Assembly (NCBI GenBank): GCA_905178155.1 | Contig: CAJINV010000004.1 | Location: 1,848,181 to 1,853,771, forward strand | Source: Amoebophrya sp. A120 | Taxonomy: Eukaryota > Protista > Dinoflagellata | Direction: 5' to 3' | Length of the DNA stretch: 5,591 nt | Shown: positions 2,826 through 5,591 of the stretch, piece by piece | Layout of the letters: each line of letters starts with the position of its first letter | Numbering within the stretch: position 1 is the stretch's first letter | The notes under the pieces: generated by a model | Told to the model about the DNA's origin: nothing | What the model saw: the letters and a program-made list of their open reading frames with translations, nothing else | Database searches by the model: none | Made by a program: the position numbers and the translations under genes

Positions 2826-2915
2826 ATGGTCGGTCCACCAGGGGAAGAGGGCGAGCAGGAAGCAAATGCAAAATCTTCTTCCAGCGCAAGAGGAAAGTCG
2901 TCGCCCCACGAGGTC
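2826..2915 (+). CDS. Exon 1 (MVGPPGEEGE...SPHEV)
   Basis: 30 codons from the ATG to the left direct-repeat copy aggtc (2911-2915); start codon choice is uncertain. Confidence 0.75.
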
Positions 2916-5552
2916 TATGGATTGCAAAAATGTCTGGGTCTGGAAAATTGCAATTTGTAATGCTGTCTTTGGATTCCAAAAGAATCTGTATTGCATGACC
3001 AGCAACAGGACTCCAATTTGTGTTACGCGGAGAGGGCATTTCTCATGCGGAATAGGCATTAGGAGGCCCTCTGAAAATCTGTGTTGCTAGATCATGCACT
3101 ACAGACATCACGGGTCATGCAAAATATGCATGACAAATCTTGCATCGATCCTTCCAGACCCACACATTTTTACATTTGATAAGGTCGACCACAGGCGTGC
3201 GCTGCTTGGCGAACGGGATTTACTCCTTCTAAAGTCCAAGATCGACATATCATGAGGAAAATGCCCCCTCCCCATATGGAAACGAAGTTTCTGATGCTGG
3301 ATTTCCATACACAAATCAGATTTGTCTTGCAGTAGAGGAATGCAGGCATATGTCAAGCCTCAGCCGAGAGGTTTTGACGTAGGCGCCTAGCATGACAAAC
3401 GTGTATGCTCTGAGCCAAACAGCATCACAAACCGCCTGAAAAATGCGGAACGCTTTGTGGACTTGCCTTCTTGCAAGACAGACAGGATTTGAGGTCAGGG
3501 TCACAAATGCGCATCACAAATTTTCAGACGGATACGATACGGCTTCGATATGGGGAGGGGGGATTTTTCCTTTTGATACGACAAGCTCCGGCACGAGGGT
3601 GCGCGGTTCCACTGGTATTATCCAGGAAAAAAAATTTGTAGGTGTAACTTTGTTGGAGGATTAGCATGACAAATATCTCCCGCATGACAGCAAAAACCAT
3701 GTCATGCGCAGATAGTACGGGAAAACGCCGCTGAATGGACCCTTAGATGCATGCCAAGCATGACAGGCTCAAGCAATTTGCATGTTGCGCATCACAAATT
3801 TACACTAACAACCTTTTTTTCTTGGATAGGAATGCAGCGGAATTTACCCTGACGCTGGCGAACTCCCCGGGGCGGGCGCAGGAGCTCATCATCGCTATCA
3901 AAATGAAAAATCCCCCCTCCCCATATCAAAACGGAAATCTGTGATGCGGGATTTGTGTACACAAATAACATTTGTCTTGCAGGAAAGCACTGCGCGCAGA
4001 TCGCAAGCCTAATGGGGGGCCTTTTGGTGTAGGGGCCTAGCATAGCAGACATCTGCCCTGTAGGCCTTACAGCATTACAAACCGCCTGCATATCGTGGCG
4101 GACTCTCTGGATTTGCCTTCTGGCAAGACAGACAGGATTTGTGGCCACAAATCTGCATCACAAATTTTCGGAGGGACATGTTTTCAATATGGGGAGGAAG
4201 GATTTTTCCTTACGATAATCGCCGCCCTGTCGGCGTACATCCTGGTATTCGCTTTGTTGATGAACTCGGTCGCAAGCAACGCATTTGTACCCGAAACCGA
4301 ATCCAAAGAGGAGCATTTTCCGATATGCATTGCAAATATGTCTGGGTCTGGAATATTGCCACCAGGTTTGTCATGCAATTTTGAATGACCCACGATGCTT
4401 GTAATGCATGACCTAGCATCACAGCTTTAGCTTTTTAGATGACGGCTTCCTGATGCCTATTCTGCATGATAAATGCCCTTCCCGCGTAGCACAAACTGTA
4501 CTCCTCTTCCACCTGGTCATGCAATACAAATTTTCTTAGGATCCAAAGACAGCACCACAAGTTGCAACCTTCCAGACCCAGACATATTTGCACTGGATAC
4601 CCGACCCGAGCCTTCAATTTCCTGCTGGCCTTCGTGTTCGCACTGTCTACGGCAAGCACTTTGTTTCTCACCTACATTCTCTCCGCGATCACGTTGGACA
4701 GCGAATTCGGTGCCTGGCGACAGCTACGCATTGCAAATATGTCTGAGTCTGGAATAAAGTTCGAACCTGTAAAAATGCAGGTCTTACATTTTTTCTGTGA
4801 AATCTGTACTATTGCGTGACCAACAAAACAAAGGCGCAGTCTCTTTCGTCATACAAAAACGCAGCTTCTTCTGCGAGCTGCGCATGACAAAGCATTCTGG
4901 AAAGTTGTCACGCTTGGCTGCATTCAGAACAAGTACAAGTGTATCAATCATCCACACTGTAGCATCACAAGTTTCCAGACCCAAACATGTTTGCATTGGA
5001 TAGCAGCTCCTGCGCTTCGAGCGGAACGCTGAGCTCTACGTGTGGCTCATGGCAGTCGCATATGGCGTTCTCAAATGTTACATTCTCGTCAACTGTGGTA
5101 TGAATTTGTAATGCAAGAACGGCAAAAGTTAATGGGGAAAGCTGGCGCCTTTTGCATTACAGATTTGGGACAGATTTACATGCTGTTTAGCCCCTTCGGA
5201 GATTTGTCATGCGAAGCAGCTTAAGGGTGGCGCTCTTGGTGGCAAATTTGCATGACAAATCATGTAACAGTTGAAAGCGTAACATTTGCGAATCCCATAT
5301 CGCGAACACCGCGGTTCTGGGACTCGTATGTTTTGCAAAAGTCTCGTACTCGTATAAATGCATTACAAATTTCCTCAGCATGAGAAATAAAATTTGTAAT
5401 GCTGATTTTCCTTGACGCAGGGATTTGTAATGCATGACTGCAATACGAGTGCGATACTTTTGCACAGGATAACTCGCCGCCGTCGGAAACGCGTTGACTG
5501 CCGAGCGGGCGCGGTATGAAAGTGCACAACTGCTCGTGCTCCCCCTTAACCT
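2826..5552 (+). CDS. Spliced gene for an uncharacterised multi-pass membrane protein (at least 9 exons, 3' end outside the window), interrupted by non-canonical TIR introns
   Basis: Manual join of 2826-2915, 3187-3247, 3584-3618, 3834-3895, 4223-4323, 4605-4724, 5008-5060, 5305-5326 and 5477-5552 (620 nt) is stop-free: MVGPPGEEGEQEANAKSSSSARGKSSPHEVDHRRALLGERDLLLLKSKIDKLRHEGARFHWYAAEFTLTLANSPGRAQELIIAALSAYILVFALLMNSVASNAFVPETESKEEHFPTRAFNFLLAFVFALSTASTLFLTYILSAITLDSEFGAWRQLLRFERNAELYVWLMAVANTAVLGLAAVGNALTAERARYESAQLLVLPLN. Three hydrophobic, helix-length segments. ATG 2826 has the context acaacATGG; in-frame upstream ATGs exist at 2787 and 2793. Junctions can slide within each 5-bp direct repeat. 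Confidence 0.88.
2916..3181. mobile_element. TIR introner/MITE-like intron A1 (266 bp, family A)
   Basis: TIRs 2916-2945 and 3152-3181 match 25/30; exact direct repeat aggtc at 2911-2915 and 3182-3186; ends TATG...GATA. Confidence 0.9.
3187..3247 (+). CDS. Exon 2 (DHRRALLGERDLLLLKSKID)
   Basis: 61 nt between insertions A1 and B1; continues the frame of exon 1. Confidence 0.82.
3248..3578. mobile_element. TIR introner/MITE-like intron B1 (331 bp, family B)
   Basis: TIRs 3248-3277 and 3548-3578 (core ccccctccccatat); exact direct repeat cgaca at 3243-3247 and 3579-3583. Confidence 0.9.
3584..3618 (+). CDS. Exon 3 (KLRHEGARFHWY/N)
   Basis: 35 nt between B1 and C; in frame. The last codon is TAT or AAT depending on the junction register. 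Confidence 0.8.
3619..3828. mobile_element. TIR introner/MITE-like intron C (210 bp)
   Basis: TIRs 3619-3653 and 3794-3828 match 29/35; direct repeat ggtat/ggaat (3614-3618, 3829-3833). Confidence 0.87.
3834..3895 (+). CDS. Exon 4 (AAEFTLTLANSPGRAQELII)
   Basis: 62 nt between C and B2; in frame. Confidence 0.82.
3896..4217. mobile_element. TIR introner/MITE-like intron B2 (322 bp, family B, same orientation as B1)
   Basis: TIRs 3896-3926 and 4187-4217 match 26/31; exact direct repeat atcgc at 3891-3895 and 4218-4222; colinear with B1 throughout (e.g. shared gcaagacagacaggatttg). Confidence 0.9.
4223..4323 (+). CDS. Exon 5 (AALSAYILVFALLMNSVASNAFVPETESKEEHFP), first hydrophobic segment
   Basis: 101 nt between B2 and A2; the predicted frame is the hydrophobic one also visible inside ORF 4095..4388. 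Confidence 0.87.
4324..4599. mobile_element. TIR introner/MITE-like intron A2 (276 bp, family A, inverted relative to A1)
   Basis: TIRs 4324-4353 and 4570-4599 match 28/30; direct repeat tccga/cccga (4319-4323, 4600-4604); its reverse complement aligns along A1. Confidence 0.9.
4605..4724 (+). CDS. Exon 6 (TRAFNFLLAFVFALSTASTLFLTYILSAITLDSEFGAWRQ), second hydrophobic segment
   Basis: 120 nt between A2 and A3; the predicted frame matches the hydrophobic part of ORF 4562..4819. Confidence 0.87.
4725..5002. mobile_element. TIR introner/MITE-like intron A3 (278 bp, family A termini, divergent interior)
   Basis: TIRs 4725-4754 and 4973-5002 match 24/30; direct repeat acagc/gcagc (4720-4724, 5003-5007). 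Confidence 0.88.
5008..5060 (+). CDS. Exon 7 (LLRFERNAELYVWLMAVA)
   Basis: 53 nt between A3 and D; in frame. Confidence 0.82.
5061..5299. mobile_element. TIR introner/MITE-like intron D (239 bp)
   Basis: TIRs 5061-5081 and 5279-5299 match 18/21 and extend with gaps to ~55 bp; direct repeat tcgca/tcgcg (5056-5060, 5300-5304). Confidence 0.87.
5305..5326 (+). CDS. Exon 8, micro-exon (NTAVLGL)
   Basis: 22 nt between D and E; needed to keep the frame, and it continues the third hydrophobic segment. Confidence 0.78.
5327..5471. mobile_element. TIR introner/MITE-like intron E (145 bp)
   Basis: TIRs 5327-5355 and 5443-5471 match 24/29; exact direct repeat actcg at 5322-5326 and 5472-5476. Confidence 0.9.
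5477..5552 (+). CDS. Exon 9 (AAVGNALTAERARYESAQLLVLPLN)
   Basis: 76 nt after E; in frame. Its end is inferred from the next TATG start at 5553. Confidence 0.75.
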
Positions 5553-5591
5553 TATGTTTGTCGTGCAAAATGCCAAATCCACACGCCGCCT
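5553..5591. mobile_element. Probable start of a ninth TIR intron (truncated by the window)
   Basis: Begins TATG, followed by tttgtcgtgc, a variant of the shared internal motif. The predicted direct repeat is aacct (5548-5552); the right end is not visible. Confidence 0.55.

Follow-up and report, generated by a model that had tools for sequence, protein, structure and literature searches.

Introner elements with paired ends in a gene of Amoebophrya sp. A120 and their probable removal from RNA

How inserts that for the most part cannot be given GT–AG borders are taken out of a gene with its reading frame kept is the question raised by this locus. The inserts belong to a class published for the same strain and represent it in typical form; the value of the locus lies in the handle it gives on the removal of introns that have no splice-site letters.

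The host gene and its inserts

On the forward strand of the window, the 5,591-nucleotide stretch of DNA analysed here, nine exons are separated by eight complete elements. In the exon coordinates the left repeat copy is assigned to the exon, the true cut falling inside the repeat; P0002 is the annotated partial protein.

Exon 1, 2826..2915, + strand: likely ATG, start predicted; weakly conserved; outside P0002
Exon 2, 3187..3247, + strand: matches homologues P0003–P0005; outside P0002
Exon 3, 3584..3618, + strand: last 8 codons are the start of P0002
Exon 4, 3834..3895, + strand: present in P0002 and in the X5 contig
Exon 5, 4223..4323, + strand: first predicted membrane helix; in P0002 and the X5 contig
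Exon 6, 4605..4724, + strand: second predicted membrane helix; 100% identical to P0002; in the X5 contig
Exon 7, 5008..5060, + strand: in P0002 and the X5 contig
Exon 8, 5305..5326, 22 nt, + strand: in P0002
Exon 9, 5477..5552, + strand: P0002 ends inside it

Element 1, 2916–3181, 266 nt: exact repeat AGGTC; removal deduced solely from the open frame and from homologues; fold z −7.6
Element 2, 3248–3578, 331 nt: repeat CGACA, both copies identical; in one family with element 4; fold z −8.2
Element 3, 3619–3828, 210 nt: repeat GGTAT/GGAAT; GT–AG register 3615–3829, apparently unused
Element 4, 3896–4217, 322 nt: exact repeat ATCGC; skipped in the X5 contig; joined in P0002
Element 5, 4324–4599, 276 nt: repeat TCCGA/CCCGA; skipped in the X5 contig
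Element 6, 4725–5002, 278 nt: starts TAC; repeat ACAGC/GCAGC; skipped in the X5 contig
Element 7, 5061–5299, 239 nt: repeat TCGCA/TCGCG; joined in P0002
Element 8, 5327–5471, 145 nt: repeat ACTCG, both copies identical; present in very many copies; joined in P0002
Likely ninth element, 5553..5591: left end only, beginning TATG, end like the others

A preliminary description made from the letters alone had counted nine TAT/TAC…ATA elements with terminal inverted repeats (TIRs) and 5-bp direct repeats. Recomputed ends and repeats agree for the eight complete ones; the ninth shows only its left end, its right end and repeat lying beyond the window. Seven of the eight start with TAT and one with TAC, all end in ATA, and A runs lie inside the ends at about +9 to +15. 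At the start of each element, 20–28 of 30 bases can be paired with its opposite end in an alignment without gaps. The 5-bp repeats are exact in elements 1, 2, 4 and 8 and match at four of five bases in elements 3, 5, 6 and 7; among repeat lengths from 2 to 8, none except 5 fits all eight. The chance of a four-of-five match between two exon 5-mers is 0.018, or ~1e-14 for eight, a rough estimate in that the repeat itself helped to choose the element ends. An element finder returned exactly these eight in the window and none in ten base shuffles. Every element is predicted to fold into a rod (z −4.7 to −8.5; first-pair probability 0.62–1.0), so that paired terminal inverted repeats within an exon, as in substrates of SOS splicing, are expected from the folds; Rfam gave no match. 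Elements 1 and 5 are 78% alike with interiors in opposite orientation, and elements 2 and 4 are 74% alike: the elements form several families rather than being eight diverged copies of one element.

Removal of each element together with one repeat copy takes out 271, 336, 215, 327, 281, 283, 244 and 150 nucleotides, five of these lengths not being multiples of three, and leaves the stop-free frame that had been proposed, 620 nucleotides or 206 codons from 2826 to 5552; kept in place, all eight elements carry in-frame stops. The open frame fits a 5-nucleotide repeat but does not by itself fix the number 5, as removing 2 or 8 extra bases also leaves it open. The gene had been called hidden, yet 140 residues of it are already in NCBI: CAD7944521.1 (P0002, Amoebophrya sp. 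A120) is contained without mismatch in the product of this splice (residues 55–194) and spans junctions 3–8, six of the eight. Our gene model would add two upstream exons (1 and 2) to the annotated protein, and, the homologues being 424–491 residues long, the gene likely continues past the window end. Pfam returned no family above cut-off for nine pieces of the window, P0002 and five homologues. A structure model of the host protein reached a pLDDT of 65 and a pTM of 0.44, a PDB fold search with it gave nothing at E under 0.001, and the atlas matches of homologue P0003 were under 0.9 and unnamed.

Because the locus is from A120, the strain for which introner elements were described, the class is not new, and the novelty suggested for the case of another lineage falls away. 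The class had been named correctly: the match to CAD7944521.1 and the description by Farhat et al. (2021; PMC7789003) identify the elements as the published introner elements of Amoebophrya A120, with class and organism already known.

Junctions and the likely position of the cut

That the eight inserts behave like non-canonical introns is supported by annotation, by a contig and by homologues. One 377-nt contig from run X5 (RNA by guess; contig depth 4.3) skips 327, 281 and 283 nucleotides, corresponding to elements 4, 5 and 6, passing from 3890 to 4218, from 4319 to 4601 and from 4720 to 5004. Its joints contain no foreign letters in the two pieces listed, and all three are exact, although contigs drop rare variants and so hide any scatter of the junctions. 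X5 may be the data behind the annotation, and the contig is therefore not independent of it. (Over 1497–2805, X5 has no cover where X1 does, a gap that proves nothing.) Homologues of 46–49% identity continue across the junctions, and removal of the element plus five bases gives the best homology score among open registers at six of the eight, including junction 2; taken by itself, homology favours a different open register at junctions 1 and 5. Junctions 1 and 2, which lie outside the contig and the annotation, are covered by the frame and by homologues, with junction 1 aligning gap-free to P0003 and P0005. The raw RNA runs X9–X11 yielded 77, 4 and 870 reads, all matching only in part and containing no joint, a result that speaks neither for nor against removal, and runs X6–X8 gave no exon joint among the joints listed (15 of 67, mostly X1).

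As had been stated beforehand, a shift of the borders brings elements 1 and 3 alone to GT–AG, and the other six reach neither GT–AG nor GC–AG. The register offered for element 3 is apparently unused, since the annotated protein has Tyr at this site, from the left repeat copy, not Asn, and the contig side length of 59 requires that the cut follow base 3–5 of the repeat. At elements 5 and 6 the X5 contig keeps the left-copy letter at repeat base 1; at element 7, whose joint is itself unseen, a contig side length of 52 implies the right-copy letter at repeat base 5. Taken together, the mismatched repeats point to a cut that follows base 3 or 4 of the repeat, on the basis of four repeats, two of them read through side lengths, and on the assumption of one common offset. 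Under the two registers so allowed, neither cut site has common letters.

A polarity of the elements was also considered: five of the eight in the window start with TATG or TACG and seven end in GATA, resembling a donor +5 G. This signal was rejected, as among 55 strand-called elements, out of 121, the G end lies 5′ in 7, 3′ in 18 and at neither end in 30. Polarity was definable in 6 of 50 neighbour pairs, all alike.

Copies elsewhere in the genome

Among 127 further copies at other loci, the 5-bp repeat is exact in 99, matches at four of five bases in 17 and at fewer in 11. No target preference is seen, all four bases being common at every repeat position, and GT–AG can be reached in 13 of 116. 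Removal of the element plus five bases gives the longest frame at 67 of 121 loci, against 24 for plus four and 14 for plus six, with 16 ties (p = 1.7e-10); plus four or plus six beats it at 38 of the 121. Removed lengths are spread over the three residues modulo 3 (46/40/36), and the 27 repeat mismatches among these copies show no mutation bias that would locate the cut. Both orientations of the interior occur (in 8 and 9 of the 17 callable copies, of 121), and the 5′ and 3′ end profiles of the 55 strand-called elements are near-symmetric. With interior orientation and target both free and the ends symmetric, the signal is narrowed to the paired ends.

Splitting the gene for the largest subunit of RNA polymerase II is one such copy (locus L078, 694–955), which sits between residues that are adjacent in 1i3q_A (830/831) and has no GT–AG or GC–AG register. 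Most window elements and other copies, this one included, do not conform to the GT/GC–AG ends of U2 spliceosomal introns.

At the DNA level, contigs of run X1 that cross exon–element borders have depths of 30–38, against 26.6 in the upstream flank, so that most DNA retains the elements. In the bin 5320–5459, which covers most of element 8, the summed X1 contig depth is 174,018 against the same 26.6. One end motif was found at 153 loci and was absent from viral_contigs.

Possible routes of removal of the elements

We consider it likely that the elements are removed at the RNA level, guided by the hairpin. A transposase acting in trans would have inserted them, creating the 5-bp duplications; in RNA, each element would fold into a rod and be cut inside both copies of the repeat, behind its third or fourth base, such that the intron would begin 1–2 nucleotides before TAT and end 3–4 nucleotides after ATA. 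One hybrid repeat copy would remain and the original frame would be kept.

Two other routes would dispense with RNA excision. DNA-level excision in a somatic-like stage, in the fashion of ciliate internal eliminated sequences, would supply element-free templates for transcription; a transposase is in keeping with the inverted ends and the target duplication, and taking out an element with one repeat copy exactly undoes its insertion. The X1 border contigs at the depth of the unique flank, and the lack of any element-free junction among the joints listed (15 of 67), make this very unlikely. Hardly credible is the retention of the elements in mRNA, with ribosomes hopping the hairpins between matching repeat codons and the cDNA junctions as artefacts. 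The 5-nucleotide repeat always contains one full in-frame codon, identical in both copies at six of eight junctions and encoding the same residue at seven, but the codons at element 3 encode different residues (Tyr/Asn) and at least eight hops of 150–336 nucleotides would be needed per message. We know of no precedent for such hopping in a nuclear gene.

Junction evidence based on cDNA can itself be a reverse-transcription artefact, as a hairpin with a short direct repeat makes false introns in cDNA (PMC8240250). The RNA evidence here and, in the portion of the 2021 paper available, there too is all cDNA-based, and a literature search turned up no direct-RNA study. That the junctions are such skips, and the locus a pseudogene riddled with miniature transposons (MITEs), is nevertheless most improbable, given exons that stay open and conserved in homologues while the elements differ widely, repeat mismatches that are silent in three of four cases, a copy that interrupts an intact-looking RNA polymerase II stretch, and frames that stay open across other copies.

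For RNA-level removal the catalyst is a separate matter. Our analysis leads us to favour, tentatively, a putative spliceosome-independent cut-and-ligate reaction of the SOS-splicing type over a U1-less spliceosome; hairpin-triggered, RTCB-dependent excision provides the precedent (PMC12779559). Against such a catalyst stand the imprecision of SOS splicing, unlike the base-exact need of the gene, and the retention by A120 of most of the spliceosome, according to the available text of PMC7789003. A modified major spliceosome lacking U1, with the paired ends as its signal, has been suggested in print and is a real possibility; it differs in the catalyst only. In the same text, the A120 spliceosome is almost complete in its proteins and retains U2, U4, U5 and U6, with U1 undetected, although this machinery is required in any case for canonical introns. 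In a tunicate, the spliceosome has come to handle non-canonical introns derived from transposons (reviewed in PMC11282704). Symmetric ends would present the same signals either way round, but the allowed registers share no letters at the cuts and the donor-like 5′ G failed. The spliceosome typically joins exons precisely to the base.

In its full form the reading drawn from this analysis is more doubtful, if possible: tens of thousands of A120 introns might leave without the spliceosome, a nuclease measuring from the base of the TAT…ATA hairpin and cutting at a fixed offset (base 3 or 4), irrespective of letters and orientation, and a putative RtcB-type ligase joining the ends. Were the catalyst not the spliceosome, it would offer an exact, programmable way to excise a hairpin from mRNA.

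Compared with the introner elements of A120 as described in the accessible parts of PMC7789003, the window elements show no difference in kind. The strain is the same; the published elements have TAT-starting inverted repeats and a run of A some ten bases from the end, direct repeats of 3–5 nucleotides at the borders (5 bp in the legend to Fig. S19), a hairpin, a mean length of ~240 nucleotides, many families and no splice-site consensus. The window elements have 5-bp repeats at their exon borders (four exact, four at four of five), non-GT–AG borders (six of eight cannot reach GT–AG and element 3 apparently does not use its register) and relatives repeated in the genome, as seen from contig depth and the end-motif loci. 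Those parts of the 2021 paper leave the position of the border within the repeat unset (Fig. 3 legend), and repeats with differing copies provide a simple route to map the cut; nor do they treat element orientation or RtcB. Added here to the published class are the repeat statistics, the free orientation, the RNA polymerase II copy, the estimate of the cut and the apparently unused GT–AG register of element 3.

TIR/TSD introners (PMC9860276; A120 in PMC12130899, with tens per gene) are likewise non-autonomous DNA transposons turned introns, but recruit a donor or acceptor from the element or the duplication, whereas most window elements cannot reach GT–AG or GC–AG. Non-conventional introns of euglenids, which are released as circles (PMC11282704), share pairing inverted ends, repeats resembling target duplications and non-canonical junctions, and differ in a pyrimidine|purine rule with CAG/CTG and in belonging to an unrelated lineage. 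SOS splicing of animal DNA transposons (PMC12779559, which does not mention Amoebophrya) resembles the window in its RNA-paired TIRs, in excision near the ends without GU–AG and in serving several unrelated transposon families; it works through AKAP17A, CAAP1 and RTCB and without the spliceosome, and it is imprecise and leaves indels, whereas the window gene needs base-exact removal at many junctions. If the spliceosome-free reading were true, A120 would carry out a form of SOS splicing that is exact to the base and acts across the genome, and even its RNA polymerase II would depend on it.

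Elements and reading frame of the host gene

Scanning the window for TA(T/C)...(A/G)TA stretches that have paired ends and are bordered by repeats reveals the following arrangement.

2826–5552, forward strand: host gene, nine exons
2916–5471: eight complete elements (elements 1–8), 145–331 nt
5553: likely ninth element, left end only

Flanking all eight elements are 5-bp direct repeats, of which four are exact and the others differ at a single base; among repeat lengths of 2 to 8, none but 5 fits all eight. Removal of each element together with one repeat copy (referred to here as element+5) yields a 620-nt sequence that, read from the ATG at 2826, stays open through 206 codons, and each element, if kept, contributes one to five in-frame stops. 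The G+C content is 59% for the exons and 36–47% for the elements. The removal lengths and the number of elements able to reach GT-AG in the preliminary description agree with our recomputed values. Its claim that element+5 restores the frame also holds, but the open frame alone does not set the number 5, because removing 2 or 8 extra bases also leaves it open; the number is set by the 5-bp repeat and by a contig from sequencing run X5, described below.

An internal motif, GCATnAC, occurs two to four times in each element (window 2916–5471), though the families differ, and its complement is present in six of the eight; there are no occurrences in 1–2825 or in the exons. The motif is possibly a binding site for a mobilising or splicing factor.

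With exon 6 as the query, one protein among eight candidates is 100% identical: CAD7944521.1 of Amoebophrya sp. A120, annotated as an unnamed, partial protein. Its sequence is contained unchanged in the element+5 splice (residues 55–194), and exon junctions 3–8 are therefore already joined in the annotation. The NCBI model is without exons 1–2 and the start (window 2826–3610); its predicted extension by 54 residues has support from homologues. Five of these were found (one from A25, an A120 paralogue, a transcriptome protein and two further), the best three sharing 46–49% identity and being 424–491 aa long, so that the gene is likely to extend beyond the window. When open registers are compared, element+5 gives the best alignment to the homologues at six of eight junctions, with a different open register scoring slightly higher at junctions 1 and 5. 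The portion of the protein encoded in the window has three predicted hydrophobic stretches. Pfam, structure-model and fold searches gave no nameable family or fold for the protein.

DNA, putative transcripts and the likely position of the cut

Run X1, read as DNA, covers all 30 window bins. Its contigs span exon–element borders without other letters at depths of 30–38 (26.6 upstream), and summed depth on element bins is 1e4–1e5; the elements are therefore present in DNA and are high-copy. No element-free DNA form appears among the 15 of 67 joints listed.

A 377-nt contig at depth 4.3 from X5, a run tentatively classed as RNA, lacks elements 4, 5 and 6, skipping 327, 281 and 283 nt, respectively (among the 15 of 19 joints listed). 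As it may derive from the same data as the annotation, it is not counted as independent. Its joints, like any cDNA evidence, could instead be false introns made in reverse transcription, which hairpins with direct repeats produce according to PMC8240250; such an artefact leaves the conserved open frames unexplained.

Mismatched repeat copies show which copy survives at each junction. Base 1 of the left copy is retained in the X5 contig at elements 5 and 6. At element 3, a tyrosine in the annotated protein requires the left copy at base 3, and the X5 contig side length of 59 is compatible only with this (the GT-AG register predicts 62). For element 7, where the joint itself is not displayed, the side length of 52 matches the right copy at base 5, the left copy predicting 57. 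From these four junctions and one contig we infer a cut after repeat base 3 or 4, if one offset applies throughout; such a cut gives intron ends without common letters.

Upstream of the gene, an X5 contig of 497 nt matches 506–1002 without differences at depth 87, perhaps marking where a neighbouring transcript ends; the one nearby ORF scanned (448–654) has no Pfam match. The G+C-rich stretch 1400–2165, with an X1 depth of 67 versus 27 in the next flank and nine other letters, is likely a low-copy repeat, and three ORFs within it have no Pfam match. Two related features occupy 1–124 and 267–368: a palindrome with 61-bp arms (87%) and an inverted repeat cluster rich in G+C, 53–72 and 327–346 being exactly complementary. 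They may belong to a further small family of elements, one that lacks TAT ends.

Copies at other loci

The 23-base end motif of the family containing elements 1, 5 and 6 matches at least 153 loci in metagenome_contigs, the 80 listed all coming from one assembly series, and has no match in viral_contigs. Identity to the window is 67–85% among the 25 longest matches, the source assembly being A120 or a relative. From 186 anchored ends, 127 unique elements with both ends were obtained, of which 99 have exact 5-bp repeats, 17 match at four of five bases and 11 match less well; at every repeat position, each of the four bases is common. With both strands considered, 13 of 116 copies can be shifted to GT-AG. 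At the 75 loci of at least 1,000 nt, the longest frame follows element+5 removal in 67 of 121 cases, +4 in 24 and +6 in 14, with 16 ties, and removed lengths modulo 3 are distributed 46/40/36. Neighbouring elements at these loci lie a median of 66 nt apart (53 spacers); the shortest spacer is 31 nt, versus the 22-nt exon 8 in the window, and exons may have a minimum size.

Once 76 elements that belong to another family or have no clear orientation, and 28 whose strand is ambiguous, are set aside, the interior is oriented as in element 5 in 8 of 17 and opposite in 9. The 5′ and 3′ end profiles of 55 strand-called elements are near-symmetric. The donor consensus carries a G at +5; the idea that a similar G marks the 5′ end was checked in the same 55 elements and rejected.

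One 262-nt copy of the same family (locus L078, 694–955), whose repeat is exact and which reaches neither GT-AG nor GC-AG in any register, interrupts a gene for the RNA polymerase II largest subunit (399–1421). The exons adjoin at conserved residues, the left ending at 830 and the right starting at 831 (chain 1i3q_A). The interruption is seen in metagenomic DNA, and a second copy of the gene may exist.

Probable removal mechanism and relation to known introns

Each of the eight elements has a predicted rod-like fold bringing its two repeats together (z −4.7 to −8.5). Because the target letters and interior orientation are free and the ends symmetric, the paired ends are most likely the signal, and the cut position is probably measured from them. 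Hairpin-guided removal at the RNA level is, in our assessment, quite probable; ribosome hopping over the hairpins is a very unlikely alternative.

As the putative catalyst of hairpin-guided removal, we lean tentatively to a nuclease and ligase over a U1-less spliceosome, because animals possess an excision route set off by paired transposon ends, as described in PMC12779559. The same paper describes this SOS splicing as imprecise, which counts against the choice. A U1-less spliceosome, proposed for A120 in PMC7789003, which reports U1 as not detected in this strain, is a serious second candidate.

The preliminary description observed a real feature and read it correctly; the elements are of a known class in a known organism. 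The class was described for the same strain in PMC7789003, and the finding is therefore already known: the paper reports 29,850 repeated introns in A120, with inverted repeats starting TAT, 3–5-nt direct repeats and hairpins, and names a 5-bp direct-repeat example in its supplement. Its text leaves the intron border position within the repeat unknown; offsets of the cut or the orientation of elements might already be given in figures S19–S25 and the tables. Among the papers listed in searches mostly outside subscription journals, none resolves the mechanism, maps the cut or links it to SOS splicing, and the window gene is a useful test locus for this still open mechanism. Tens of introners per gene are reported for A120 in PMC12130899, and PMC12005148 describes introners as restricted to part of the genus.
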